64,000 nt of DNA from Yuukianura sp. NJ FZ-2021. Its lineage: Eukaryota. Position 1 is the stretch's first letter, and the number at the start of each line of letters is the position of its first letter. This document shows, in pieces, positions 2,451 to 60,660 of the stretch. A program made the position numbers and the translations under genes. Where the stretch lies: the NCBI GenBank assembly GCA_046563655.1, contig CM102283.1, positions 9,982,001 through 10,046,000 on the forward strand, written 5' to 3'. The notes beneath the pieces were generated by a model, which saw only the letters and a program-made list of their open reading frames with translations, did no database searches and was not told where the DNA came from.

Positions 2451-2643
2451 TCTTTTTAAAATTTCAAAGGTCAAAATCAAAACAAATAAAGATCCAGATC
2501 AAATTCTAATTCACCAGCTAATAAATTGAGGGAAGAAAGTGAACATTAACAATTTTAGTTATTAGTCTGATGTGACGTTTGACCTAGGACTACTGACCTC
2601 TACTGCTTGGGTCAACGTATCTACACAACAAAGTACAGCGACC

Positions 2644-3981
2644 ATGCTAACTGCCAATTGGAATGCTTGGCTAAAAGCCTTCGGCCCCTGGACACTGCGG
2701 ACGACATATCGCTACCTTTCGACCCAGCGCCTTGTGTATTCGGAATTCGGTGACCCAGCTCAAGTACTTCGCTTCGAACACAACGTGGACATCGGTACAG
2801 GGAAGGACCAGGTAAAGGGCACTTGTCTCCGCAGAAAAACAAATAAGTGTTTTTGTTTTAACAATCCATTTCTTATGAGTTTTAGCTTGTTGTGAAGATG
2901 CTTGTCAGTCCAGTGAATCCGGCGGACATCAACACAATCCAGGGGAATTATCCCATCAAGCCCAAAGTTTTTCCTGCCGTGGGAGGGCAGGAAGGTGTCG
3001 GAGTGGTTCTCAATCTTGGCCACGGTCCCAATCCAAATGGACTGGCAGAGGGTAATAAACTAACTTTTAACTAATGATAATTAACTTAACTCTAACTTTT
3101 ATCATTCTTAGGAGACTGGGTAATTCCAAAACATTCTGGAAGTGGGACATGGCGAAGTCAAATTGTTGCCAACAACGATGATTTTATAGCTGTAAGTTAA
3201 CTTGGGTTCAGTAGCTCACACATTTTGTCAAAAACTCAAAAATTCTTTTTTTCCCTTCAGATTCCAAAGATTGATGTAATTTGTGCAGCTACGCTTTCCG
3301 TGAATCCTTGCACTGCCTACCGACTGCTCAAAGATTTTGGGGAACTACAGCCTGGTGACACTGTCATTCAGAACGGTGGGAACTCCGGAGTAGGAAGGGC
3401 TGTCATCCAGCTCTGTCGCGAATTTGGACTCAAGTCCATCTCCATTGTGCGGAATCGAGAAGACATTGATGCACTGAAGAGGGAGTTGGAGGCTCTAGGC
3501 GATTCCAATACAATGATTTTGACGGAAGAGGAGCTTAGCCCAAAAGTTAGGCAATTGACATCCCAGTTGGCTCTCAACTGCGTAGGAGGAAAGGTGGCTA
3601 CGGACATGGTGCGAACACTCGGTAAAATCCAGTTTTATTCCCAGCTCATCCCAACAACGCAGATTTTAAATTCGTTGTTTCATTTTAGAACCCGGCGGCG
3701 TGATGGTGACATACGGCGGCATGGCGAGGAAACCCGTCGTTACTCCCACTTCCCTCTTAATTTTCAACGGGATTGCTCTCCAAGGATTCTGGATGACACG
3801 ATGGAACCACGTCAGCCCTCTAGAAGAACGCCTAGAAATGCTCAACTATTTAGCACAGCTCTCCAGAGACGGAAAGTTCAAACCACCAAATCACAAACTA
3901 GTTCCGATCAGGGATTTCAAAGAAGCATTTAGCAACACAGGGGGATTTACTAACCACAAAATTATTTTTGAATTCGACTAA
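2644..3981 (+). CDS. MECR: Mitochondrial trans-2-enoyl-[ACP/CoA] reductase (MDR family), 5 exons
   Basis: Transit-peptide-like N-terminus; motifs LVYSEFGDP, SPVNPADINTIQGNYP, GTWRS, AATLSVNPCTAYRLL, VIQNGGNSGVGRAVIQ, MVTYGGM, LQGFWMTRW. Exons ~2644-2811, 2886-3051, 3112-3191, 3261-3621, 3689-3981. Confidence 0.95.
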
Positions 3982-5368
3982 ATCCAAGTTGGAAGAAAGG
4001 AACCAAAGGTTGGTCCACTTCGATTATGAACAGCGTCTGCACTAATGTTAATTTTATTGACGAACAATACACTTAGTGTATAATTTGATATCCATAGTCC
4101 TAGAGACAAATATATGAGGATAATATGAAATAATTGGATTAGATTGAGATTGTTTAATTACTCCAGATCATGAGTTACTCGTAGAGTTAATTAGCAACTA
4201 CTCTACACGCTCTCCATTTTATGAAACGTAGTGCTCAGATGGACTCCAAAGTTGTGTCAACTAAAAGTCATTCCATTTGTAAGCATCTGAGTTGAGTAGT
4301 TCCTAAGGTCGCAAAATGACTAAACAGTGATGGAACTCTAGTCCAATGTTTAAAAAAGGCTGTCTAATTTCATTTCAAAATTAAAACTGTCCAATTAACT
4401 TTAAAAATTAACTCTTCTACGACGTGACTCATGTTAGCGTTTCAAAGTACTGCTCAACTGCCGCAGTAGGGCCTATTTTCTATCTCTTAACACGGCCTAC
4501 AATTTAGTCTTAAATTAGAAATAATTAACACAACAATTAACACTGCGGAATCATTCATCAGGACAAGGAAACATCACAAGAAAACAAGATTAAGCTGAAT
4601 TTTGACACGATCCCAACCATGTCCAAGTTGGTCAACTGCAAAACACAATGAAGTGGCTCCATTCGTAACAATGCTGCCCACAAAGAGGGCAGTGGAGGAA
4701 TGTCCTTGACATTCCGTCCACTACAACTGCATTTGCATAGTTGTCCTTACAAAATGTAAGGAGACTTATCTAGAACATACTAACCTAAATCCTTCAAGTA
4801 TTACAAGTTCCATTTAAAAATCAAAAATAGTTCTAGTTGAAAAAGCTCAACTGAAAAGGAGTAACAACTTGAGTAGGGAACTTAACATAAGAAAGACTTT
4901 AACACAAATTGAGCTCTCGTTTTCCATTGAATGTTTGCCACTGAACACTTTTGTTAAAAAGAGAGACTGAGGAGAAGCTGCCTGCAGTGCGAGGGGGACT
5001 TAAAAAATGGGGTAAACAGAATGGTAACTGAAGTTAAGGGCAACTTGTAAAGTGGAGATTTAAAAGTAGAGTTAGCAAGATCTTCTGTAGCTGCTTGTTT
5101 TGGCGTTTGGAGTAGCGGAATTGGGTGGTTCCTGAGGATTGGTTGGAGGTTGAGAGTGTTGGTAGTAGTAGTAGTATCTGGAGGGGATGTCGAGTGACTG
5201 TCGCTGAGGGACACAGCGTGCTCCTGGTCCTTGGCGTGAGCGAAGAGGAGACGCATATTCTGGCGGGAGTTGAGGGGCCCTTGACGCCTTCCTTCTGTGG
5301 AAGGGAGAGTAGGAGGAAGTGGAGTGATAATGGAGTGGCGACTGGATTGGGGGATGGTTCACTTGATG

Positions 5369-8300
5369 TCAAACCATCACGACGTCTTCCTTCCCGCAGA
5401 ACAGAAATGGATATTGATCAATCATCGTCTGAACCAAGTCCTCCAAGTGAGGCCTCATCTGCTCAAAGCGCAGCATGTCCACGAAGCTAAATGGCAAAAG
5501 CGTTGGCCACCAGCAAATGGCCAGATTCTTGGAGTCCATGGCGTTGATGCGAGAGCGTTCAGCCACTCGAACCAAATGAGAAAATACTATGCGCAACACG
5601 GCTTGATTTGGCGGCGGAAGACGACGTAGAAACTCCTTCAATTCTAAGAGGCGCAGAGATCGATCCGGAATCAGCGCCACCTACAAAAGCCAAACCCACA
5701 TTCAGCTGCTTACTTGATAAAAAGTAGATGAAGGATGCTTACTCTTTCAATATCAGGCATCATGTCAGTTGGGATGGGGACTGGGAGTCTTTTGGCCAAG
5801 AAATCTTTGAGTGCCGTTGCTACAGCGTTGACTGGAATGTCCAGACTCCTCAAATCAGTGTTCGTGTCTTCCGCCAGTCTTGCAAACAGAGTTTCCACAT
5901 GAGCCCGATTCCCAGGAACACGATACAATCCTAGGAAAAACCAAAAGTCAAAGCAACATCTATATAGTAAATCCAGAGTCCAGAGATAAAGTTGTGTTAC
6001 CCTCCATTTCCAATCCCTCCTCTTCGATGAATTTGACACATCGTTCCAGAATTCCATTAGGAGCAGTGGCTTCGTCCAACTACAAAGGAAAGCTAATTTG
6101 AAAAAGAACAAAGCATTTGTGTTAAAATGCTTACGGTGGCTCCAAACGTGGGTGTTGTCTGAGGCTGTTGCTCCGTTGACTTGGACTTTGTGAGTTTCTT
6201 GGGTGGTTTCTCCTTTTTCTTGGGTTTGTCTGGCTTCACTTTGTGGCCCAACACTGCTGCCATGTCGTCCTTCAGCCTCCCGAATGCCTTCCTCTCCACT
6301 TCAACAGGTGAAGATGCTTCTGGAATCAACACATTTCCATTAGACTCTTGGAGAAAGGAAAGAGAAACAAGGAACTAACCTGAGCCTTCCTCCATCGTGA
6401 GTGATTTATTTCTGGAGCTGAAGATGCCCGAGTCGCCTGAGAGTTGGTAGGGCACAAATCCTTTGGGGACTGTTGGGATTGGAGTGAAGATTGCCTTGGG
6501 TTTCGGTGGAGGAGCATGATGATGATGTCTGCCGCGTCCAGTGCTGGATCTCAAACTCTTCTTCCGGGCTCTTGGTCTCGAGAAATCTTCGGGATCAGAC
6601 ACTGGAGAGGCAGAAGAACTGGAGTCTGTGGCAGGCGGTGGGATTCGACCTACAATTGCACAAAGCCAAAAATTTACATCACCGCCCCACTTCCTCTCTA
6701 AAGAAGAACAAGGAAATTACATGAACCAAAACTCATCAACAAAAACAAATAAAACCAAATCCAGGAAAGCCACTCAAATCTTCTGGAGAAAGGAAAGGAG
6801 AGAGAAGTTATAGCTGGATAAAGATTGGATTTTGATGATGATTTGCTGACCTGGATTCCTCCTTGGTCTGCTCGACCTGTTTCGATGTCCAGTATCACTC
6901 ACATAGTCGTCATTTGGTAAGTTTGTGTAGGGGGGAGAAGTGTGTGGGAGTCTCATTCTGGCCAACGCATCCGTCACAGCACTGTACTCTGCAATGTTGA
7001 TTCTGCCTGGAACATTGTTTCCAGATTGACCAGCATGGTGGGGTCCAGAATTGGGATGTCTGAGCTGAGTGGAGGTCCCATTGTTGTTGAGAGATCGAGA
7101 GTGGTGACTTCTTCTTCCAGTGGCAAATGCAAAGTACTGCTGTGACTTTCCACTGCTGCCACTGGACACAGTGCCCACAGTGGGATTCTGAAGGTCACGG
7201 AGGTTCCTTCTAGCACCGCCACCAGCCCACACGGTCTCAAAGTCCCTGCTTCTCATTTGGAAGTTGTCGGAGGGTTCCATTTTGGGAGGAGTGGGGTGCT
7301 TCTGCTGAATGACTTGGCGCTGGCGGACTACTGACGGTCTCACGAGAGCATCTCCACTCCCCACTTCACTGTCGTCACTCGGCAGTTGCTCGTAGATGTC
7401 ATCAGAGTCATTGGTTGAGCCCAGTTGACTCTCTGCCGATGGAACTTTGGGTCTGGGAGGAGCTCTGTACAGGGCACATGGCGGAGACTCCATTCTGGAA
7501 AATGAAATGAAAACATAAAATAAGTTGACACAAAGTAGAATTCCAAGAGAGATTCCTCACCTGAATGCCTTCTCAATGTCGCTCTTTTGATCCCACACTT
7601 GGCGGAAGAACGGAGTGTACATTCCCACACCCAGTTCTCCACTCCAAGTTGTAAAGTGACCCCGCAATTCATCCGCCAAAGCGTTTCCTTCCGTAATCAA
7701 CTTTTGACCAACACTCGAACCAAACATGGTGGCTGCTCCACCTCAAATTCAAAATAAAATAAAATTCAAAATTCCAAAATAAAATTGAATATTATTTAAA
7801 TTCTAACCATTTTCCGTGACTGCCAGAATTTGAATGGGTAGATTTGGGACGTTGGATGAGAAGGCTTTGAGAGCGGAGAAAGAGGCGATGCGATTGGCAG
7901 AGTAAACAAGGATGAGGCCATGGACCAAATCTTCACGGTGAGAGGAAGCACCATGGTATGACGACAGAATTATCTGGAAAACAGAGTGATTTTGAAAAAG
8001 AGTGATGGCATAATGACATAAGGTTGGTTCATACCTGGACACATCTCCTCCGCTCGCCCAGAAAAGTGAGGAGACTGATGGCTTTGTCTCCAGTTTGTTG
8101 ACATGCTGGCAGAGTGAAGAGAGGAGTGACGAGAGAGGCAATGTTGAAACCATCTCCACAGAACATGCACATGATGACTCTGATGTCGGGCTCTCCACTG
8201 AGCACAGGTTGGTTTCCAAAGGGGGTGGAATGGGGATTAGCACGGTCTCTCAAGGACCGAACGAGGGACTGCAGGGCCTCCGCCAGCAACTGCATACTGA

Positions 8301-11300
8301 AAACAAAAATAGATTCTCTCTTCAAACACTTTTCACATGCCATCTTTTGAAAAAGTGAGTAAAAGTTTGTGTTACCTTGGTGTGCCGTCGGTTCCACTCA
8401 CATCTACAAATCCACATCCCAAACTGTCAGCCAAACTCTGGCCATCGTTGCTAAGCAGTTCCTTGTCTTCGTACTCTGCTTGATTGATTCTTGCATTGAA
8501 GACAATGACGACTGGTGGCTCAGCAAAAGGTACGTTCTCCTCTGCCAGATTCGTGAGGAGAGTCTTCTCCAGGTCTGCTTTCGTGTCCTCCAGAGTTTCG
8601 ACAGTGGAGTAAATGACTAATCTCGACTGGAGATGACCAGAAGTGTTGGCAGGGAAAGTGGCTGGAATGTCCAGCTGAGTCTTCAGCTCCACCGTGTACA
8701 CAACTCCATCCAACTCATATTCGTCATCCTCACAGATTTGTTCCAATCCTCCAATCCAAAAAACAAGCAATTACTGGATGAAATTGAAGTTAAAAGTGAA
8801 GTTGGGCTTACCATATTTGACACTTTCTACGAGTGCCTCTGCACCAATCAAGTAGAGAGTCAACACTGCATCCGTAGAGAGGTTGGTCGTGGCTCCATTG
8901 AAATGCGGCACTTTGGGGGCACTTGACTCCAGCAGTCTCTCGACCTGGACCAAAATAAGACATGAATAACTTAAAAATGAAGTTTTGGGTAGAAGTTTAA
9001 CTTACGATGGAGTCCATGCATGCAGGGGCTGCAGGGCAGTGTTCCCTGAGAGGACAGTGGACAAAGCCCAAGTGCTGGAGCAGCATGAGTCTCCTCTCTT
9101 GATCCAGTCGATCCAGTGCTTTGTATCTGGAGTCTTCCTGCAGAATTTCCACCATCTCCCTCACTTGTTGCTGCGTGATGGTGGCCATGGGAGACACAGA
9201 GTGCACTTGGGCAAAGATCTCTGCATGCTCCAGCATCAACTCCTGGAACGCCCTCTTCGCCTTCTCAATCAACTGAAAACACAATACAAGTCAGAGTACA
9301 GTCCATACTTTCATTGTTAATAGTTGAGTGTTAGACCTGTGCTTGATGCTGTTCATAGATCGTCTGAATCTCCTGCCCAGTCAGAGCTTCAAAGCAGTCG
9401 TGCCCCATAAAGAGAACTTGGAGTTCGTTGAGACTTTTGCCTGGAGTGACATAAGGCGTGTTGTCCAGGAGCAGTTTGAACTTGAGGCGATACTCTCCTC
9501 GCTTCCGATCCGCCTGGAGGGAATTGATCAGATTCCGCCACACCTACAAAAAGAGATCAAGTTCGAATTGAATAAGAAAGTGGAAAGTGTGCTAATAATG
9601 TTACTGTTTGAGCTTCTCCTGTTGAGAGCAAGTCGAGTGGGATGCGATTCTCTGCCCCTCTGAGGTTCGTTTCTGATGAGGATTCTGAGCCCCAAGTCCA
9701 ATCTGTCTCCTGTGCTAAACCGGAGGGGGCGACTGCAAAGTAGAGAGAGCAATCTGGATGATCTTTGATTCTGCCTATCACACTCTCCCACTCCTGGTTC
9801 TCAGGTAAAGAGTCTGGAAACAAAGTCTCCAGAATCTGAGGCAGACGCTCCAAGTAGCGCCGCTCTCTCCTGGACAAGAAGTCTTCCTTGAGTCGCTTCA
9901 GATGGCGACGGAACAGACGCTGAGCACAGTCTTCTCCAAACAACTCAATGTATCTGCAACAACAAACAAAAGTTAACCTTCATCACATCACAACAACCAA
10001 AAAACATTACTCTTCATCTGTCAAACTTTGGATTTCGGAAAATGAAAGCGATTTGTGTGAATCCTTTGATGATGAAATGGTTGTGGTGAAAGTGAAAGTG
10101 GGAGAAAGTCTACTTTTACACCCTGGGTGTTCCTCTTCCAATCTCACACTTTACACTTTCAAAGTGAAAGTCCTTGATGGAATCTCAACCTTCCAACTTT
10201 TGAGAGATGAAAGATGCGGGATTTGGGGAAAGTGTGGAGGTGTAAGTAGAGTTTAATTTGTTACCTCTGGAAAGCAGGGTACTTGAGTAGTTCTCTGCAG
10301 ATGGGGATCCAGACTGCTCTGTGATCTGTGACATGTGACTGGATGAGAGCCTGGAAGGAGTCTGACACAGAGTCCAGCATCTCCTTCCGATTCCTCGCCG
10401 TCTCCTGGTAGGACAGAGGGCGAATCCGGTTCTTGACCTTGTCAATCTGTTGCGCCAAAAGCAGAAAGGCAACATCCACATTCACGTTCTCATGAGCAGA
10501 AGTCTCCACGATCGGAATGTTGAGTTGACGAAACTCCTTCCGCCCCACCAGCTTCTCCGCTTCCTTCATGTACGCCTCACAAGCTTCATCATTTTTCGTC
10601 GTCACGAGCACAACAGGCTTCTTCGTCCGGATGATGTTGTACAGAATGGCTGCAGAGAACTCGGTCTGACGATCTATGGATCGACCTGCCAAAAATAAAC
10701 AACACAAAATAGGTTTTAAATATTCAAAACATGTTTCCAGTCATAGTTTTACCTGGGACAGCACTGACATCGTACACCACAACAAATCCATCAATGCTTA
10801 GTCTCCCATCCGGCAGTACTTTCTGTTCGTACTGAAGTAGAAAGATACGGATTAATTTGACAATCCATGTTTAGCATAGAAAGATTCACAAAGAATTGAC
10901 GGAGTGCTGTGAACTTGCCTCTTTCTCAATGCCCAGCTGACTTTTGCAAATGTACATGAGCTTCTCGGCAGAGAAAATTCTGGTACTCGTGCATCTCTTG
11001 ACGTATGGCTCCATTTTTCCGCCCTGGAAACAAACAAAACCAACTTAGGATGCAACCTTGACCTCTCGTTCCTCCATTGGAAAACATGACCTCTGACCTC
11101 AGAGGAAAAATGTAACGAATACTCTTATTTAGTTAAGCCTAACATAAGTGTGGAAATGACTCAAAAAGAGAAAGTTATTGATCAAAGGACTTTGGAAAAG
11201 AGTTCTACACAGGCCTTGAGAGACAGGGGTCACAAGTTGCATAGAAGGAGATGCTCACCTTGAATGGCTGGAACGTTGCATCATCGATAAACTCTGTCTG

Positions 11301-11700
11301 CTCGATGATGTTGAATCCAATTTCTGGACTGTCTTCCAGTGCCTTGGTCGTGTAGCCCCAGTAGAGGAAATGATCATTGTTGATCACACGACCACTGAAG
11401 TCAGTTACACTGAGGACGGAGATGTGCTCGGGAAAGTAGTCATCAGCCTTCGGTCGCACGAATCGATTACACAGGCACGACTTCCCTACTCCAATCTGCC
11501 CCTTTTCCTTCTCGCATCCTAAAAACACAACTTACTTTAGTGACCAATTATTCATACTCTTACTGTCTTCCAAGTCCAATCATGTACCATTCTAACTAGT
11601 TAATCTTACATTTTGTCATTTTGATTGACTAAAGAAGTTTACCTGTGAGTCCCACAACGGCCACATTGTAGACGCGGGTTGAGTCACCTCTGCGTGACAT
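5369..11700 (-). CDS. RhoGAPp190: p190 RhoGAP (ARHGAP35/ARHGAP5 family): N-terminal GTPase-like domain, FF domains, pseudoGTPase domains, C-terminal RhoGAP; multi-exon
   Basis: ATG at 11700 ([20 protein letters not shown]), [62 protein letters not shown]-like FQELMLEH..., GAP motifs GLYRVPGN and [17 protein letters not shown]. Stop at 5369. Non-coding 5' exons likely extend to ~12600. Confidence 0.95.
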
Positions 11701-13249
11701 TTGAGTACTTGACTGGAGACAGTGGAACTGGATTAGTGTAGTATCATCCCAACTTGTAGAGTGAATCAGATGTAACTCACTATAAAGTGATCCACTGGAA
11801 CTTGGCACTGTGCCTGGACTTGGATATAGGGCCTAATCCACCGTAAATGACCATCACACGAACCACCAAAAGAACAAGAATTAGATGAGAGTTGGGGTAT
11901 GTCACTTCATTCTGGGTTTGGCTATGACGAACTTAGAAGAAGAAGGACTTCATTTCCAGAGTGGGTGTAGATGACAAACCTAAATCACAACACAAACACA
12001 GATTAGATTAGACAGGGAATGACGGAGTTAGGAGAGCAGTTAGTGATCCAGTCCAATTCACGCAACGATGGAATAACGACACTCTCACTTACTGTTACAC
12101 TAAACTGTCAACTGTTGGACATTGGGCCATGGTTTAAGAAGGAATTTAGTAGTTATGGTAGAGGAAATTACAGATGGGGTAGTTACATACCTATTCCGGC
12201 TATCAATTTCCAGGGGATGGATATATTTTGGTTTGAGTGTTCACTGGTCACTGTCCAGCAGTTCCAGCGACCTGGAAGGAGGAGAATGCGGAATGGAAGG
12301 CAGTGGTTGCGTGTCTCTTCGGACGATAGTGTTGCGTAGTTTGAGCTTAGCCTGTTGTTCGTGTCATGTCGGATGTGGATGAATTAATCGGTGTGGCACT
12401 GAGGACCGTTGTTGCTCTACTGGAATAGGGATCCTTCCTGTTCCTGTCGCCCTGTCCAACAGAGCAGACTCAGACATGTGAATGGAATTTGTGTAATGCA
12501 AAGAACCTTACCCTTTATCGATCTCTTTCTCCGAAAACGGAGTAGTTCCCTCCGTCCCACCAGAGGATTCGGAGATCCAAAGGCGGCTCGCGGAATCTGG
12601 TGTTAAGATTAGTCGCGTGAGTATTTCTTCTTACTTGGATACAAGACACCAGGCTAAGATTGCACGTACATTTTCTGACGGTGTGCCAATTGGGGGGCGT
12701 AACAAATTGAGCCTGGACTCCAGAATATTGTTTGTCTTTTTACTCCTTCCAGCTAGTTGTCTCTCTTGGCACTTTGTTCTGCAATAGTGGAATCCGTTCT
12801 GATCCCTAATTACATTGCAATCAAAACAGTTGTAAAGACTAAACTGATGCCCAGCAGGAACACGAGTAGCCGTCATTTGGCCCTACATATTGGCGTACTT
12901 CTTCTAATGCGTACACCGCCGGCTGAGTTTCCAGAGGTCAACGTTGGTGTAGAATCGTTGGATGAAGTCAAACATAATAGAACAGAACATGATAAGCAAC
13001 CTTATTTCAGTTCTAACTTGTATAGAAGTACGGTGATAGGTGGTATGAACCTAACCTTAAGACAAAAGGTTCAGAGTTTTCAGAAGATTCACAGGATTAG
13101 TCAGGCCCATTTAATTTTAGCCTTTTTGAGTTTGACAAAAAGGAAAAAACAAAAGACCAGTGATAGTGAAGCAACAACAACAAGGGCAAGAACAAAACGA
13201 ATAACAGACTGAAGAAGTCTCCGACGAAGCATTAGTTGCGACCACCACG

Positions 13250-15522
13250 ATGAGCTTGAGATCTTCGAATCGTTCTGACAAGACAGGAAACGACGAGAAC
13301 ATTTCTGATTCCGGAAGTAACAATGATGTTAAACTATTACAAGAAAAAGTGTCACAACTCGAAAATGAACTCAAAACGTTTCGAGCAGAAGTTGACATGA
13401 AAATGAGCATCGTGCAGCAGATCTTATCTACGAGGAATGGTTAGTATATCACAGTTTACCTTGTTATTTAATGAATTGTGGTACGTATGACTTATTCCTT
13501 TTCATCTAGCAGAAATGTTCACAGCTCAGAAGAAGCTGATAGAACGAGAGCAGGCACTTCATGAGAATGTGTTGTCCCATTGGAAGAACATTCCGGATCT
13601 GGTTGCCTCTGGGCTATGTCTGAAGTTTACTGATGATGGGGAGAATGACATTCATTTGAGTATTCATGATGATCAAGCTGCCGAGAAACCGCTGAAGAGT
13701 ACCGGACCCGGACAAGGATCATCCACAAAACGGAAAGCCTCGAGCCCCTCTGCAAGAAGGGATCGTCGAAAGAAGTTGAAATCTAGGTATCGAGAACATG
13801 GTAAGATCACCTTCTTAGATATTTCTGTTTTTGTGATTTGATAATTTCTATATTGAATACTTCCTCATCGTGTAATAAACGGCTCGTTTTCTCTTTTAGG
13901 CGAATCTGAATCCGAAGCTGCTTCTGATGCTAGCCCACAAGAGGATCGAGTTCCACTTGATACCGTTGGGGATGAAGGCGACACTGGTACTGGAGATGCT
14001 GATGCTGATGGGGAGAACAACAATGGTATTCTGAACTCCGTGTTCTAAACTTCCGAAAATCAAGTGTTAACCGATTTAGATTCCATCACTGTTTTACGAA
14101 GTTGAAATACGGGTTAATTTAACCAGTGTCTCAACTTTGTAAAACAGTGATAGAATGATGCAAAACTAACTTCCAAAACCTAACTCGTATAATTCATTTT
14201 TAATAGAAGAGAACAATGAGGATTCGGATTCCAGTATGGAAAGGAAGGTGTTTGTGGAGTACTACTCTGAGGAACCACCGAAACCGGGCCAGCTTGCTAC
14301 CACAACTCCGGTCTGGAAATATTACTGGCGAGAGGAGAATGGGGAGTCGGCACTGTGCAAACTTTGCGATGAAGACGGGGTGCAAAGTATTTTGAAAGTA
14401 AAGAAAGGAAATGGGATAACGGTTCTCCGCAGACATCTCAAGCGTAAGCATGCTGACTTCGCCGTCGATTTAGTTCCACTGAAGAAGGTTGCTGGTTCGG
14501 CTGCAGAAACATCTACAGGTAACGATTATCTCTTTTAGTAATCTTACTTTTTACCTAATAAGTGAAAAAGTCATGTTTTCTTTTAATCTGGCATAAACAA
14601 TATTATCGTTTATGGTTAAATGCCACCGGAATTTGGGTGTGAAATTAATCCCACTTGAATTCATATGAGGGTAAACAAAATTCGTCCAAAAGGTAGTGTT
14701 TCGTGTTTTTAAAAAAAATCGGAGTTATGGTATGGTGTAACCTATGGTGACAACCTTGGTCTGTCTATACTAGCAGACGTACTTGTTTGAAACGAAGCCA
14801 CACCCCACCCTCCGCCTACTATTAAGGTTAACGATTAGTATAGCGGCTAAGCTCCTTGGCCACCGCTCCATCAACTAATTTGTCGAAGTATATTAGGTGA
14901 TGAACAGAACTTTTGCAAACTTAAGAAGTAGGCTTCAGTGCATCGTTTACATGAAAGACCCAGTTTGGGCTAACAATGAAGAAATTACTGTTACAGAATC
15001 AACTGCGAATTTTATAAAATACCAACAGTGTATCAACTGTGGTGATAAAGTGAGTGCTAAAAGGGCACACTTCAACAAATTTACAACAGATACGACATAC
15101 ATCAGGGGTGGAAATTTCGACATTAAAGTAGTAGTATTCGTTAGCCACGCGTGGGGTGGGGGAGTGTATGAATTAAATATTTTAAACAAATTTTAATTCG
15201 GGGAAAAAATAACTTCAAAAATTAAATTTGAAACAAATATGAAACAGATTCGAAAAGTTTTGTCAATAAACGAGTTGAAACTAAAAAAAAGTTGGTTTAC
15301 TTTGAACGTTTTTTTTTCGTTGCAGATGGAACTTTTGAAGCTAATAAGTGGCCAGAAGGCGGGAGATGCGGGAGAGTTAGAGATCCGGTTTGGACTAAAT
15401 TCGGGCAATTCGTAGTGGACGGAATGCTGAAGCAGAAGTGTCTTACGTGTAACACAATTGTCAGTTCTAAAGTGGAAAGGCTCAAACAGCATTACGAAAA
15501 ACATCAAACCACTACGGAGTGA
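13250..15522 (+). CDS. Uncharacterised coiled-coil plus double BED zinc-finger protein (no transposase catalytic domain seen)
   Basis: Five exons joined by phase-1 GT-AG introns into one open frame: 13250-13439, 13510-13800, 13900-14025, 14207-14518, 15326-15522. Heptad segment VKLLQEKVSQLENELK, basic NLS-like RRDRRKKLK, acidic linker, BED1 (VWKYY..CKLC..LRRHLKRKH), BED2 (RDPVWTKF..CLTC..LKQHYEKH). Confidence 0.75.
14950..15085 (+). pseudogene. Degenerate BED-finger exon copy inside intron 4 of the BED gene
   Basis: KDPVW...QCINCGDKVSAK-RAHFNK aligns with exon 15326-15522 (RDPVW...KCLTCNTIVSSKVERLKQHYEK) with a short deletion. No phase-1 acceptor found. Confidence 0.55.
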
Positions 15523-16192
15523 ACATACAACGTTGTACAAAGCAAAATGCAAATGCTAGCATAAGAATCATAATCACCTAAAGTATTCTAAACGCTATGA
15601 AATATTATTTTCAGATTTCAAAAACTTTTTTTTAAATTGAGAAAAAAGATGAGGGAGGCTGTTCATTGTTTCAGTTATTCCACAATTAGGTTGTGATCCA
15701 AATGAAAATTCAACTTGTATTGTTCACATTATAAAAATTTTGGTTTGACAGGTTGTGCTTAATTTCTTTTGTTTTTGAACTGGTGAAGAAAACTGCTGTT
15801 GTTTTAAGTTCTACCTGTCTGTTTTTATAGAACAAGGTTCATGTCAGGAATTTTACAAAGTTGTAAGAAAACTGATTATCCTCAGTTGGATTCGTACGTC
15901 GTGAGCATAAGTAGATATAGAGCCAGACTAAACCTCGGACATGACAGACATTCGCAGTCTGCTGTTGTTCCTGTGCGTCCAGGCGAGTTTTTCGCGCATG
16001 CGTGGTGTCTGGGGACAACGAATCGTATCGCGACCAATTCAATGGAAGGTTTTTCAAAGGAACGTTCCCGCCAGGATTCCAATGGGGAGCAGGAACGGTA
16101 ACATTAAAGTTCAATTTTTAACAAAAAAAAAATTTCAAAAACTGAAACAAAAAAAAATGAAAAAGTGAAAAAATTTAAAAGAAAAATTAATG

Positions 16193-16360
16193 GGTTCCAG
16201 GTAATTTGGTTGGAATTGGATTGGTCGAAAACGCAGAGGTCGGCAAACCTAACCTACCCCTAGCATTAGAAAGATTAACCAAACCTAACCTAAATCCCAT
16301 ATACGCCTGCCGACCTCTGCCATTCCGACCAATTCACTTCCGACCAAATTACCTGCTACG
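16193..16360. mobile_element. MITE, ~50-bp imperfect TIRs, 8-bp TSD AATTAATG, internal AACCTAACCT motifs
   Basis: CAGGTAATTTGGTTGGAATTGGATTGGTCG...GAGGTCGGCA is mirrored by TGCCGACCTC...CGACCAAATTACCTG. AATTAATG at 16185-16192 and 16361-16368. Confidence 0.85.
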
Positions 16361-16840
16361 AATTAATGTGTTTTACTGAAGTGTTTTTGATTCTTGGATT
16401 TTCAGTCGGCGTATCAAGTCGAAGGTTCAAGCACAGAAGAGCTTTCACCAGACACAAATTTCGAAAATTTGTTTATAATTTTTGACTTTGATTAAAATTG
16501 TTTCAAAATTTTGAAACTTATTTTGAAATACGTTTTAAGGTGGGTGGAATGCTGACGGGAAAGGGCCGAGTATTTGGGATGATTTTGTAAGAGCCTAGTC
16601 CAGTGGTGGACGGAAGTACGGGCGACATTGCCTGTGACTCTTACTACAGATACCCAGTTGATGTCAAACTACTCAAGAAAATGGGCGTAATAAAAATTTT
16701 TGAATTTCAATTTCAAAATTTTCAAAAAAGATTTTTTTTTTCGAAAATGCGTTTTCTTAGGTGGATTTCTACCGTTTTTCTATGTCGTGGTCACGACTGT
16801 TGCCGGATGGCCGAATTGGATCAAAAAATCAAGCTGGAAT

Positions 16841-17236
16841 TAGTCCTTCAAGTTCGAACTTCCGAACTCGAACCTGGGTGTTTTCCTAGGTTCGAAGTTC
16901 GAACCTCAGCCAAAAGAGTTCGAACTTACCCGTTAATATTGGCAAATATTCAACAATGCCTGGATTTCAACAAAAACCGAGGCATATTGCCTCAGAAAGT
17001 AGTTTTAGTTCACTTTAAAGCTATTGTTTGAGTTAGTTTTTTAAAAAAATTCAAATACAGGGGGAAATGTACTTCGGATGTGAATTGCGAAATTTATCAC
17101 CCTCACCATTTTTGTCATCGCCCCTTGCTTTTTGCATGTAAAAAAAAGGTTCGAAAGTTCGAACTTGCTCTTCAGAAAGTTCGAACTTAGGTTCGAAGTT
17201 CGAACTTTTCATTTTTGGCCCGAACTTGAAGCACTA
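16841..17236. mobile_element. hAT-like MITE inserted in a GH1 exon, 8-bp TSD GCTGGAAT
   Basis: TIRs TAGTCCTTCAAGTTCG / CGAACTTGAAGCACTA; many subterminal TTCGAA palindromes; TSD at 16833-16840 and 17237-17244. Removing it restores KNQAGIDYYNNLID. Confidence 0.93.
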
Positions 17237-17423
17237 GCTGGAATCGACTACTACAATAACCTCATCGATTTCCTTCTAAAACACGACATCCAACCACGTG
17301 AGTCTTTCCTTCACATGCAATTCGTTCGAAAGCAATTGGATCAAATCACAAATTGGGTCAAAAACAGACCCAGTGCGACACAAATTGAGTCAAAGCAAGG
17401 TTTTTGACTTTGATTTTCCTTAA

Positions 17424-17614
17424 CAGGCTGGGTAATATCTCATGTCCTTTCGATTGTCAGAAAAATTTCCATTTTCATTTCAGAGCATCATTGTCACAAC
17501 AATGAAGTCATGTTTTTTTCTTAAATTTTACATACGAATTGGTATCAATTTTTTTTGGATTGGTACTAATTTAATGTTTTTTTTTTGTCAATAAACTACG
17601 TAGTACCCAACCTG
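17424..17614. mobile_element. Possible small MITE flanked by TTAA
   Basis: TTAA-CAGGCTGGGTA ... TACCCAACCTG-TTAA, short imperfect TIRs. Confidence 0.45.
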
Positions 17615-18390
17615 TTAAAAAAAGTTCACTTTTCGCTTGTAAAGGAACATTGGGTCAAATAATCAATTAGATCTAGGATTTCGACACAAATTGTGTCAAA
17701 TTATAAATTTCTTAATTTCCCTTTCGAACTAATTCACTTTTGGTCCAATTGTGTTGAACCTTTCACGTTGAACCAATGACACTTATTCGCCATTTCTTTT
17801 ACAAAAACAAAAATTCAAACCTGTACACAATCTCTTCTACTCCTTTTTTTCAGTTGTGAGTCTCTACCACTTCGACTTGCCAGTGAGTTTGTATCCAAAA
17901 TTTCTTCTCGTACAACTGTTCAAAAAAAAAAATTTTTTTTTCAAAAACCTTACTTTTTTTTTCGTTTTTTTAATGTAGCTCGCTCTGCAGAACTTAGGCG
18001 GTTGGTTGAACGAGGACCTTATTCAGTACTTTGGGGAATACGCTTTCTTTGCCTTTGAGACGTTCGGTGACCGGGTCAAAACGTGGGCCACTTTCAACGA
18101 ACCTGTCATCCACTGCACTGGCAGCTACGAACTGGGCACATTCCCTCCGGGGATCAAGGACGCCACGAAACCATACACATGCGCACATACAATGCTCAAA
18201 GCACATGCATTTGCATACAGAATGTACGACTCAGTTCAAACCAGTACAAGCAGGACGCTGCGGAATCACACTTGACTACGTCTGGCTCGAACCAGACGTA
18301 CAGACGAACAGTTATTCTTGCTTTCTATCGAAATTTCATAATAGGATTGTTATTTCTCAATCCATTTTCTAAGATTTGGTTGTGCCTCTT

Positions 18391-18751
18391 CACGGTTGAA
18401 GCTATGCTTCGGTCAGCATGAGGCTTCCTTGAGATGGGTATCTGGTGGAGGAGTTGTGTATAACTAGTTGTCCCTGCTCTGTGAAGAGAGGGAACCACTG
18501 CGCCGTTTTTGTGCAAAAAAAACATTCTGTCAGGTTTCCACTTTCCTCTCCTCGAATGCGGAGCAAAGCCTATGTTCTGGCATCGTGCGAGGGGAGGAAA
18601 GTGGAAACCTGACAGAATGTTTTTTTCGCACAAAAACGGCGCAGTGGTTCCCTCTCTTCACAGAGCAGGGACAACTAGTTATACACAACTCCTCCACCAG
18701 ATACCCATCTCAAGGAAGCCTCATGCTGACCGAAGCATAACTTCAACCGTG
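18391..18751. mobile_element. Foldback MITE, ~164-bp near-perfect TIRs, 8-bp TSD TGCCTCTT
   Basis: Arms 18391-18554 and 18588-18751 are reverse complements with about 3 mismatches. TSD at 18383-18390 and 18752-18759. Confidence 0.95.
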
Positions 18752-19049
18752 TGCCTCTTCCCGTTATGGCTGGTATCCACAACGATGGCTCATTTGTCTG
18801 TGCACAGCATGTCAAAGTTGAAGCGTTTGAAGAATCAGTGAGCTATGTTAGCCATGTACTTCCAGGAGCCCAAGCCCCAACCTAACCTAACCTTCTTCCT
18901 GATTTTATGTGCTATCGCGGGGGGTGGGGTGGGGGTGGAAATTTCGACATTAAAGTATTGTTGATCCAAATCCAATTTAGATTCGGTGGAAAATGAAATT
19001 GAAGTGATTTAAAACTAATGGACAACTCTATTTGTGATTTTAATTGCAG

Positions 19050-19342
19050 TTGAGGCGCCAAAGGTGGTAGCTGGGAAGTATAAAAATCCGATCTGGAACT
19101 TCTTCAAGGAATCCCCCGACAATCCCAAGTGGACAACATGCTTTTGTACTGTGGAAGTTTCTCGTGGTACAATTGGGCGGGGATCTACTTGCATCAACAT
19201 GGTCAAGCATTTGCAGCGCCGTCATCCCGCTCAATATGAAGATTACATTGCTGAGAAAGAAAAAGGGACATGTATTAGTGGGTTAAAGACTGTTTTGCCT
19301 ACAAAGACTAAGAAACAATCAAACGGTGAAACAATTGATTGA
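19050..19342 (+). CDS. Candidate alternative terminal exon encoding another BED finger
   Basis: Acceptor TTTTAATTGCAG at 19049 is phase 1 and matches the donor at 14518. Encodes NPIWNFF..TCFC..NMVKHLQRRHPAQY, then a stop. CxC rather than CxxC spacing. Confidence 0.55.
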
Positions 19343-20211
19343 ATCTCTATCGAAATCTGGTTGAACCGTTCCAATATTTCAATGTAAATTTGAGTTTTTT
19401 CTCACTTTTTTTGGCAATTGAGGCACTTGCAGCCATACCGTGACGAAGAATATCAAATATGTGGCAGAGAAGTTGGAGAATACTTTTCTTAAATTGATAA
19501 TTTTTCATATACTTTTGTGTAACCAAATAATTTGGCTAAATAAACTTTCTTGAATTATCATTCCACAACCTTTTCTACCTATGTACTTTATTACCGTAGA
19601 GTGTTTAGTAGAAAACTCGAAAGTAGATGGCAAAATAGAATGGCAATTTATTGGTTGTTGAAAAAAGTACCAGTTTCCTGCGAGTTGTAGAGATTTTTTT
19701 GTGACTAATTTTTGAAAATGTAACATTTAAATTAAGCAAATTTGGAAAATAGATTGCAATGCGGAAGTCAAAAACGTAAAACGTAAAACGTAAAAAGCGC
19801 AAGCAATTTTTGGAAGAAATGTGTCTAGACAATTGTACTTTTTCCTGGACAAATCAATGTTTCCAGATGATTTGGTATTTGGCAGTGAAGTAATAGGCGG
19901 TGGTGAAATCGCTAAATTAACGTTACCAATGAGTTTTAGATCCAAGTTAGGGTATTAGGATTCAACTGCTTCACACAAAAACCGATTTTCATCCTTCCCT
20001 TTCGTGCGACGACAGGAAGTGTAAAGGGGACTCTTTACTTCTACAAGGTTTCTCATTCCAATACCCCCACCTAATTAACTAGCGCCCCATCCGTAACTAC
20101 CCAGTACAACTAAAGTTTTCACAATTCAAATTTCTGTACTAAATGGAATTAATACGAAATGATATTCAGCTAAAATTTCTATACAACAGAGAAAACACGA
20201 AAGGATATTCA

Positions 20212-43074: not shown

Positions 43075-45320
43075 TCAGATCACTCCCTCCTTCCGGAATC
43101 TCCTGACGGCAATGAATTCGAGCAAGTAGTCTTTGGTGACAGGGTGCTGAATGCTAAATACGACAGCTGAAAAGACACAAGGATTAGATTTAGGAATTGC
43201 GAGATTGAAGGAGGTGCTTACCCTGCGCCGTGCTCTTGGCATTGGGAAATGACTTGTCTGTGCGTTCTCTGAGAAATACCCACTGTCTTCCATCATACTT
43301 GCACTCGATGATCTTCCCGTCATACTTTTGTACTGACTTGGGGCAGGGTCTCATCAAACTGAATGGAACACTCTGCCCACCAACGTACAACTCACCAAGT
43401 TTGCACGGAAGAATCCTAAATAATATAAAACAAAGTGAATAATCTTTGACCCAGTCTTAAAATGGAAGTGCTGTAACTTACCCCTCCCCAGATTCAGTGA
43501 CGACCTTGAGGCGAAAGTCCACCGTGTTGAGTTCCGGCGGTTTCCACTTGAGAACTTCGTCTGCTCGCCCCACCACGTAGGGCTGAAATCCACAAAGTAA
43601 AGTGATTCGGGGGAGACTCAAGGGAGGCAAATGAACTCACGTCTTTGACAGGTTGGAAAATCAAACCATCCGGTTCGTGGAGCAGCTCTTGGGCGAAGGT
43701 GCCCTCCAGAATGCGTTCCGTATCTTCCACGAACCAGAATGGTTTGAACCGAACGCCAAACGGTTCCGCAGTACGGTCAATGATGCCAGCTTCAATGGCT
43801 TTGTACCGAGGGTTCACAATTTCATCCTGAAACAACAATACACTTTTATTGTAAAGAAGTATTTGACATGATACTGGGATGATTTAAAAGCACTTACGCG
43901 AATGCAATTCAGTCTTACACGGAAGTCACACTTTCCAGTTTCGTTTCCTCGGAAGCGAATAACGTCATAAATCAAATACCTTGGGGTCAACGTACCGTTG
44001 ACATTGTCTATCACCATCTCCTGAACAAGAACACGAAAAACATGAGTTTATCAGTTTGTCAAAGTGGAATTATGTGAACATACGCCGTCGACGAGAGTGT
44101 CCACAAGATGCTCGTACAAGTTTTTCTTGCAAGGGAAGGTGATGTCGTGGGCCCGAAAGACGCAGTTGTCTCGGTCAATGAAATAAACTTGGCCAGGGCC
44201 TTCAATGAGCATTAGGTAGCGAGTTCCATCTGCTTTCCAGGAAACCATGTATTGCTTCTGCGTCAACAACGCTATGTTACGCATGTCCATCGACACGGGC
44301 TGAGAACCGGGAAATCCAGTGCTAAAACATTATGGGATAACATTAGTTTTCATTACATCGATCATCACAGATTAGTTTTCAATGGAAAAACAAAAACATG
44401 CCTGTTCCAGCCGCAGAGACGCTGAACTTTGCGTTGGAGCATGAGGAGTTCGTCTCTGTCAGTGATGGGATCCACTCCAGTAACACCTTCCATGAACGTT
44501 GGATTTTCCTTCACTAGTTCTCCCCTCCTCCGCTTGATTCCATTGACATGGCTATAAGTTTCATTTCCATTGGAGTGGTCCAATGCTCTCTTGCCGTTGC
44601 CCGAGTTCCAGGAAGTAGACGGAAGATCAGCGCAGTTCAAGGCGTCGTCAAAGCACCAATCCGGAAGAGCGGGAGCTAAAGGGGGTGGGGGATCGCCTTC
44701 ATCTTTGAACATTTCCCAAAGAGTGTTGATGTAATCCTGCTTGTAGATTCCAGGAGGACGACACTTGGCAAACAGATTCAAGGCTGCATTCACAGCGAAA
44801 TCAAACTCCCGGATGAGGAAGCAGCAGACAAGGAACCCACTCCGATTGAAGCCGTGTGTGCAATGAACTCCAATGTAGTCTGTGCTGCTCCTGTCCATGA
44901 ACTTGGAGCACACTTTGATAAAAGAGTCAATCTGTTCTGGCTTTGGAGCCTCCCCGTGACCTTTGCAGTTCAGTTTTGTATAAATCGTTCCATTGGCTTC
45001 CACTTCTTCTTTGGGGTAAAAACGATTCGTGTTTGTGAGATCTATCCACAGTCCGAGCTTCTTCTACAAACACAAAGTTCAATGAAATGTTAATAAAGAA
45101 GTAAGAGTAAAGTGCGTACCTTCTTGGACTGCATGTAATCGAAAATCATCTTGGGTGGAAATCTATTCTGAATGGGAACAAGTTCGTTATAGTCGGAACT
45201 GAGCGGGGTTTTGAAGACGAGGAACTTCTCAGCTATGAATGCCTCTGCCTTGCGGGGACACTTGAGCCACCGGTCAGGCACTCCACGATTGTCGTCTCTC
45301 TCTCGTCGGTGGTAGCTCAT
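43075..45320 (-). CDS. RNGTT: mRNA capping enzyme (RNA 5'-triphosphatase plus guanylyltransferase), multi-exon
   Basis: [16 protein letters not shown], phosphatase loop [21 protein letters not shown], motif [41 protein letters not shown]. Confidence 0.97.
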
Positions 45321-60214: not shown

Positions 60215-60660
60215 GGTGATAGTTGGCAGTATCCTGTGTAGAAAAAGTGATAATTAGGTTGTGTTGGAGAGAATAAAGTATAGGAGTTACCTTGTTGGAT
60301 GGTGGATGAGATATTTGAAGAGGGGCTATGTGTAGTGTCCTTCTGCCTTCGCTGTGGACGACTGAGTGAGTTTCTACGCTTTGTGTCCAACTCTCCCGCA
60401 GGAACGAATGGGAAGAGTGCGGTGGAGGTGGAGCTACACTCACCCCACCCACCACCAAGGCCACCATCTCACCCACCAGGCACTGTCGGCAGAACCGATC
60501 TCAGAACGACACACGAACGCCAAACCGGTACCAACCATCCACCTAAACGGCTCTCATTAACTACTGGTCACACATTTGGAAAATTAGGGTAAGAGAAGCA
60601 GCTGACTCACAATTTCCAATTAAGCACTGATTGACATGATTTAATTAACAGAAAATCGTC

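Follow-up and report, generated by a model that had tools for sequence, protein, structure and literature searches.

A predicted BED-finger gene with two candidate last exons

The window analyzed here is a stretch of 64,000 nucleotides of Yuukianura sp. NJ FZ-2021 (assembly GCA_046563655.1, contig CM102283.1, positions 9,982,001 to 10,046,000 of the forward strand), and all coordinates below count from its first letter. A plus-strand gene that starts about 13.2 kb into the window is predicted to encode a BED finger in a common exon, which is followed by two alternative last exons. Our analyses show that the last intron of this predicted gene carries a low-copy triad of related, partly low-complexity elements, one of which lies past the common donor while the other two, in the opposite orientation, lie one before each alternative last exon. 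A first-pass annotation had read the three elements as a candidate docking site and its selectors, whose competing RNA pairings would control the choice between the last exons.

The common BED-finger exon (14207-14518, plus strand) matches the Pfam family zf-BED (PF02892) with E=2.8e-5 and 24.5 bits, above the curated cut-off of 20.6. It ends in codon phase 1 and is followed by a consensus donor (CAG/GTAACG, GT at 14519-14520). HMMER searches with this exon returned 71 related proteins at E<=0.001, 15 of them at E<=1e-10, and the best relatives, which are short predictions resembling open reading frames (ORFs), were 66% identical. The phase of the donor at 14518/14519 fits two candidate last exons, each of which stands behind a good acceptor and is terminated by a stop codon. 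The proximal last exon (15326-15524, plus strand; stop at 15522-15524) has an acceptor with a strong pyrimidine tract. It gave no Pfam BED match and is BED-like by its CxxC...H...H pattern only, and the only polyadenylation signal past its stop is the variant TATAAA at 15730. The distal last exon (19050-19342, plus strand; stop at 19340-19342) encodes a BED finger that matches zf-BED with E=9.8e-6 and 26 bits against the same cut-off, and it is followed by AATAAA at 19539. A word-index protein search for longer proteins containing the common or the distal exon returned none at E<=0.001, which is weak evidence. Since no annotated spliced isoform was found, the gene model is neither supported nor contradicted by one.

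Contigs of four DNA runs (X1, X2 and X3 from one sample, X5 from a second study) were aligned to positions 14300-19400 at a likeness of at least 80%. When the proximal exon was compared with a diverged copy, all six listed differences at 15417-15453 were synonymous, and the non-synonymous differences clustered at 15403-15411. This synonymous-biased divergence argues that the proximal exon type is, or recently was, coding. Together with the matching phase and the splice signals, it lends indirect support to the use of both last exons in transcripts.

The common BED exon itself varies among the runs. At 14375, 14387, 14429 and 14475, no covering contig in X1, X3 or X5 agrees with the window; in X2 the same holds for most of the depth, and at 14429 for the whole of it. 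Amino-acid changes result at three of these four places (D>G, S>T, R>H). A fifth difference, at 14443 (R>C), appears in every listed contig, although in X1 and X3 it accounts for only part of the depth. The adjoining intron is about 98-99% identical, and the variable places in the exon are covered by 2-8 contigs, which suggests that the common BED exon has paralogues.

Predicted pairing of a C-rich element with two G-rich partners

The candidate docking site, or dock (14780-14860, plus strand), consists of a C-rich core at 14797-14815 with its flanks. It begins 261 nt past the donor at 14519 and is the sole C-rich site by the common exon. The distal selector candidate (18862-18957, plus strand) has a G-rich core at 18917-18936 and lies 93-188 nt upstream of the distal acceptor at 19050. 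RNAduplex gave -64.7 kcal/mol for the dock and this distal partner. As controls, one partner at a time was subjected to dinucleotide shuffling, which gave -37.6 kcal/mol (standard deviation 4.9) with the selector shuffled and -36.9 kcal/mol (standard deviation 5.1) with the dock shuffled; none of the 500 shuffles of either kind reached the observed energy. Slightly wider pieces gave -66.8 kcal/mol, which 0 of 1000 shuffles of either partner matched, and the duplex in 100-nt contexts gave -71.1 kcal/mol. The first-pass annotation had proposed this complementarity, and a comparison of duplex energies with composition-matched shuffles had been set beforehand as a check. Every sequence string that it quoted was found at its coordinates, and the pairing beats the shuffles, at -64.7 to -71.1 kcal/mol against about -37 kcal/mol.

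The backbone of the distal duplex is a 15-bp GC-rich helix with one G-U pair (14801-14815 with 18917-18931), which is flanked by colinear helices of 4-7 bp. These include one of 7 bp (14824-14830 with 18888-18894) and three of 6 bp (14851-14856 with 18864-18869, 14779-14784 with 18953-18958, and 14787-14792 with 18942-18947). The lone mismatch of the core, A14800, reads C in the single covering contig of each of the four runs, so that the core helix would be longer and the usual sequence would pair better than that of the window. Among about 3200 natural windows the distal partner ranks best for this dock, and the minimum-free-energy fold of the whole intron (4531 nt) retains the long-range 15-bp core helix between the two. 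Short (CCTAA)2-3 tracts, which we take to be the complement of the insect telomeric unit TTAGG, occur at 18876-18892 in the distal partner and at 16243-16293 in a foldback repeat (16179-16374, family D10).

The proximal selector candidate (15131-15189, plus strand; G-rich core at 15149-15166 with flanks) lies 137-195 nt upstream of the proximal acceptor at 15326. It forms three colinear helices with the dock: 14783-14792 with 15180-15189 (10 bp), 14803-14811 with 15153-15161 (9 bp) and 14826-14834 with 15138-15146 (9 bp). The predicted energy of this duplex is -47.3 kcal/mol, and shuffles as good numbered 0 of 1000 and 3 of 1000. A proximal partner had been placed at 15105-15160 by the first-pass annotation. 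A partner upstream of the proximal exon does exist, but these boundaries are off: the segment reaches -39.8 kcal/mol against -29.9 kcal/mol (standard deviation 4.1) for shuffles, 9 of 500 of which were as good, and colinear pairing places the partner at 15131-15189 instead. The two partners overlap in the dock nucleotides that they use (14801/14803-14815 and 14824/14826-14834), and the distal helix is the stronger by 13-19 kcal/mol.

The dock core is of low complexity, a short (CCCCA)n tract opposite (GGGGT)n tracts. Within the 64 kb, the 8-mer CCCCACCC was found only at 14803, in the dock, and at 60443, and the 9-mer GGGGTGGGG only at 15153, 18921/18926 and 44682, two of these three loci preceding the two acceptors. 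When the 8-mer was counted on either strand, six loci were obtained, and three of the six lie within 4.2 kb in the sole orientation pattern that pairs. The flanks alone were matched by 6, 130, 61 and 36 of 1000 shuffles. Taken jointly these flank tests are better than shuffles, and the flanks contribute complementarity beyond the core. We conclude that the pairing potential is real and that the three elements have a common origin.

Copy number and structural history of the intron

The first-pass annotation had considered that these segments might be high-copy transposon ends found genome-wide. At position 14800, in the dock, one contig was found in each of the four runs. In X1, the bins over the dock and both partners have a depth of 437-876 and the exons 762-1175, and the foldback bins 16181-16351, 16865-17206 and 17378-17719 reach 6039-18197, with about 20 contigs at single positions. 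The bins of these miniature inverted-repeat transposable elements (MITEs) therefore stand 10- to 40-fold above their surroundings (6000-18000 vs about 400-1200), and contig equivalents amount to about 1.3-1.9 at the dock vs about 67 at the MITE in 17378-17548. High-copy transposon ends are ruled out by the single-copy depth in all four runs at a likeness of at least 80%; copies less than 80% alike are invisible to this depth test, and the three elements themselves are about 70-75% alike as read from their alignment. A profile of the three elements detected no further copy in the 64-kb window, and inspection of the flanks of 14780/15189 and 14780/18957 revealed no target-site duplication. Viewed as inverted ends, the dock and its partners have a patchy complementarity over about 60-95 nt, with indels. 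An Rfam search of 14400-19400 (E<=1) gave six matches, all below the gathering score and all on the foldback at 18484-18659; the dock and its partners had none. When 13000-19500 was compared with the window by self-BLAST, no paralogue emerged, the only pairs being a direct repeat and the arms of one MITE.

This direct repeat, which had been overlooked in the first-pass annotation, is 26 nt long and exact. Its first copy (15105-15130, plus strand) is 100% identical to the second (18932-18957), which lies within the distal partner, and 100 shuffles gave no chance match. The dock and the proximal partner are separated by a decayed BED-like pseudo-exon (14951-15094, plus strand), which tblastn aligned to the proximal exon with 28.8% identity over 52 amino acids (E=0.009) and which, as read from the sequence, no nearby AG acceptor would put in phase with the common donor. 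We also weighed 14897-15196 as a third in-frame BED exon; despite weak homology to the proximal exon, this stretch was rejected because it, too, has no nearby acceptor in phase.

In X1, X2 and X3, which come from one sample, a contig joins 15104 to 18893 via 15 other letters and thereby skips 3788 nt; the joint was not seen in X5. The left edge of the skipped block, which contains the proximal exon, is exactly the first copy of the 26-nt repeat. The joint contig is about 88-90% like the window and begins where the window-like contigs stop (14893-14915), so that sharing of the dock region is suggested, not proved. We interpret this form as a probable diverged haplotype or paralogue without the proximal exon block, and a form that has the dock, the remnant of the pseudo-exon, the distal partner and the distal exon, and is devoid of the proximal block, seems to exist. 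Contigs with about 88-90% likeness to the window also cover the remnant, the proximal exon, parts of the glycosidase-like fragment described below and the distal exon. A second organism present in the runs has a dock about 98% identical to this one and is therefore uninformative on conservation. In a metagenome scan for orthologous DNA, none of the 333 pattern matches to the distal exon was confirmed, and an exact 21-nt pattern taken from the 26-nt repeat had 0 matches.

The stretch between the two last exons is occupied by the 5' half of a gene (15943-18300, plus strand), whose ORF translations we take to be glycoside hydrolase family 1-like, and by four foldback insertions. The glycosidase-like fragment has a signal-peptide-like start, is on the same strand as the BED gene, is broken up by MITE repeats and ends without its 3' half. 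It would not be part of a pairing mechanism but would lie inside the looped-out stretch. The foldback at 18391-18751 is near-perfect, with 164-nt arms that are 98% complementary and 33 nt apart, and Rfam gave only sub-threshold matches resembling microRNA precursors on it. All four runs have a contig that skips 18380-18750, indicating that a form without this insertion exists. Contigs likewise skip the repeats at 16192-16372 (179 nt), 16841-17249 (407 nt) and 17348-17652 (303 nt), so copies or alleles without these three exist as well.

Most likely, the triad arose by local duplication or rearrangement that moved intron arms along with exons. Such an origin fits the arm-duplication model of Ivanov and Pervouchine (2018, PMC6071210), in which a stem-loop with one arm present twice gives two selectors and one dock. 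In line with that model, the contig form described above seems to carry the dock, the pseudo-exon and the distal partner and exon without the proximal block; in contrast to it, neither partner here is a recent copy of the other, except for the 26-nt repeat. A further reading, which we consider unlikely, is that the locus records the birth of a competing-pairing switch. An older stem, made of the dock, the pseudo-exon and the distal partner, would have bridged the donor and a BED last exon, and a 3.8-kb block would then have been inserted between its arms and added the second selector. This block, presumably from a paralogous locus, would comprise the BED-like exon, its own G-rich partner and the half glycosidase gene, and the 15104-to-18893 form would be a copy that lacks this insert, present at the same locus in the sampled population or else in a close duplicate.

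In its makeup the window as a whole resembles an insect genome: introns are AT-rich, small foldback repeats are numerous, and a satellite spans 22 kb. The satellite (20212-42415) starts less than 1 kb past the polyadenylation signal of the distal exon and consists of 315-bp units in 70.5 copies with 98% matches and a constant GC skew of about -0.22. From ORF and sequence readings, we take the neighboring genes to encode an enoyl-reductase (2566-3981, plus strand), a p190 RhoGAP-like GTPase-domain protein (4000-12000, minus strand) and an mRNA-capping-enzyme-like phosphatase (44400-45070, minus strand).

Proposed competing pairing and its rivals

If the pairing is functional, the C-rich core at 14797-14815 would pair with one G-rich partner at a time in the pre-mRNA. 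The partner at 15131-15189 is transcribed first; pairing with it would close a loop of about 290 nt, bring the proximal acceptor to the donor and favor the proximal exon. Pairing with 18862-18957, predicted to be thermodynamically stronger, would close a loop of about 4.1 kb that contains the proximal terminal exon and the glycosidase-like fragment; with these looped out, the distal acceptor would come next to the donor and be favored. The logic would be that of competing pairing in 3' variable regions joined with a looping-out stem of the Nmnat type. From the sequence evidence, we regard a competing pairing that steers last-exon choice as a tentative reading, somewhat short of an even chance, and about as likely as a relic without effect.

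The mechanism itself has precedents. According to Pan et al. (2018, PMC6191721), competing RNA pairings control the 3' variable regions of PGRP-LC, CG42235 and Pip in Drosophila. As in the scheme proposed here, several alternative 3' cassettes share one 5' splice site, selectors before the cassettes compete for one dock, and the 3' end is chosen together with the splice. Those pairings are backed by comparative analysis and minigene mutagenesis, whereas ours is a prediction in one genome, and the present case differs in that the gene family is BED finger and the core is a low-complexity C-rich/G-rich tract. Similarly, Raker et al. (2009, PMC2724269) describe a stem in intron 4 of Drosophila Nmnat that is needed for use of the distal acceptor. 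Its arms surround a proximal alternative terminal exon, the same geometry as that of 14780-14860 with 18862-18957. For Nmnat, conservation of the boxes extends over 12 Drosophila genomes and compensatory mutants were tested, whereas the stem considered here is predicted only; its loop, unlike that of Nmnat, would span about 4.1 kb with a gene fragment and several MITEs.

The first-pass annotation had instead invoked Dscam1 and 14-3-3, and the comparison holds as far as one dock and competing selectors are concerned. As in Dscam1 exon 6 and 14-3-3xi, both of which are named by Pan et al. (PMC6191721), the dock stands beside the constitutive exon, each variable exon has one selector, and the pairings in those genes are mutually exclusive, as in the scheme proposed here. 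The variable exons of Dscam1 and 14-3-3xi, however, are internal, mutually exclusive and followed by a downstream constitutive exon, whereas the alternatives here are terminal, so that one per transcript would be expected even without a pairing mechanism. The analogy is therefore less apt than those with the 3' cassettes and Nmnat. Since the competing-pairing logic has already been published for alternative 3' cassettes, what is new here is at most the gene family and the organism. Among the papers listed in a literature search (12 of 1,410), none mentions a BED finger, which is only a weak sign that the case is unpublished.

A number of results weigh against a function for the pairing. The core alone accounts for -39.6 of the -66.8 kcal/mol of the distal duplex and -29.0 of the -47.3 kcal/mol of the proximal one, that is, for most of the energy. 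With one partner reversed, which keeps composition and runs and destroys true complementarity outside the palindromic core, the duplexes still reached -50.9 (distal) and -36.5 kcal/mol (proximal), 11-16 kcal/mol weaker than the true pairs. An unrelated coding window at 3521 gave -65.1 kcal/mol with the dock. Among natural triples of the same geometry, 25 of 88 matched the joint statistic, these triples having been cut from the rest of the window, from regions richer in G+C. A contiguous stem of at least 15 pairs (G-U allowed) was present in 42 of 400 natural triples. The natural-sequence and reversed controls together indicate that shuffles overstate the case. An nhmmer search with the dock alone found no reverse-strand match at E<=1, and the minimum-free-energy fold of the whole intron splits the dock, whose core pairs with the distal partner and whose 3' flank pairs with the proximal one. 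The distal duplex is steadier on the untranscribed strand (-78.2 vs -71.1 kcal/mol), whereas the proximal duplex favors the transcribed strand (-58.4 vs -46.0 kcal/mol), and these opposite biases give no consistent sign of selection on RNA. The intron is rich in young MITEs and structurally variable, and the 26/26 identity of the direct repeat with unrelated flanks points to a recent DNA event rather than to long constraint. Duplex energy by itself does not show selection.

A first alternative is that the three elements are a relic without function, left by an old low-copy foldback or MITE-like element or by an inverted segmental duplication. RNA pairing would then be incidental and without measurable effect on exon choice. 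We give this explanation the same standing, plausible and somewhat below even, as the functional one. In its element form it takes 14780-15189, a stretch of about 410 bp whose imperfect arms measure about 60 nt, as the element and 18862-18957 as a solo end. The hairpin 14780-15189 is indeed MITE-like in shape and has four further foldback or MITE insertions within 3 kb of it, but no target-site duplication is visible at either end pair, and the supposed MITE would enclose a remnant homologous to the neighboring exon. The exact repeat suggests recent DNA rearrangement, as does the 15104-to-18893 form found in three of the four runs, all from one sample, and the energies of the two duplexes do not consistently favor the transcribed strand. 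All four runs show a single copy of the dock at the likeness tested and no other copy lies within 64 kb, although copies as diverged as the three elements are from one another would escape the depth test. Furthermore, all three copies have the orientation and position needed for bridging donor and acceptor, and the length of the GC-rich helix, 15-18 bp, falls among those of the stems shown to act in Nmnat (PMC2724269).

A second alternative, which we consider quite unlikely, is that the motifs bind proteins and that RNA-RNA pairing plays no part. G-runs act as intronic enhancers, and GT/CACCC boxes bind Sp/KLF factors. The G-runs (GGGGTGGGG) before both acceptors could accordingly be intronic splicing enhancers for proteins of the hnRNP F/H type or form G-quadruplexes. 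The three CACCC/GT-box-like motifs could also serve in the DNA as binding sites of transcription factors, whose action would not depend on orientation. The core motif is common to both partners, is rare in the window and holds most of the predicted energy, as this alternative would have it. It leaves unexplained the colinear helices of the flanks (14826-14834 with 15138-15146, 14783-14792 with 15180-15189, 14824-14830 with 18888-18894 and 14851-14856 with 18864-18869) and the lone C-rich copy beside the donor. Least of all do we favor chance, that is, simple C-rich and G-rich tracts falling together in one AT-rich intron, which is very unlikely: the natural triples and stems, the unrelated window at 3521 and the lack of a reverse-strand nhmmer relative of the dock speak for it, but the motifs are rare and cluster in the pairing orientation, the flanks are complementary beyond shuffles, and the 26-nt repeat is exact where shuffles produced none.

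Overall, competing pairing in the last intron of this BED-finger gene is a plausible, unproven member of a published mechanism class. Of the docking-site and selector reading put forward in the first-pass annotation, the layout and the overlapping claims on 14801-14815 stand, while the comparison with natural sequence is weak and the strand bias inconsistent. If the pairing is inactive, the locus would serve as a warning that C-rich and G-rich tracts in repeat-rich introns look striking against shuffles and ordinary against natural sequence. If it is active, an RNA-structure switch would exchange the second DNA-binding BED finger encoded by the gene, and a transcription-factor-like gene outside Drosophila would join the few documented 3' variable regions that are so controlled. 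Together with the structural variant, the locus might then show the birth of such a switch through moved exons and intron arms.

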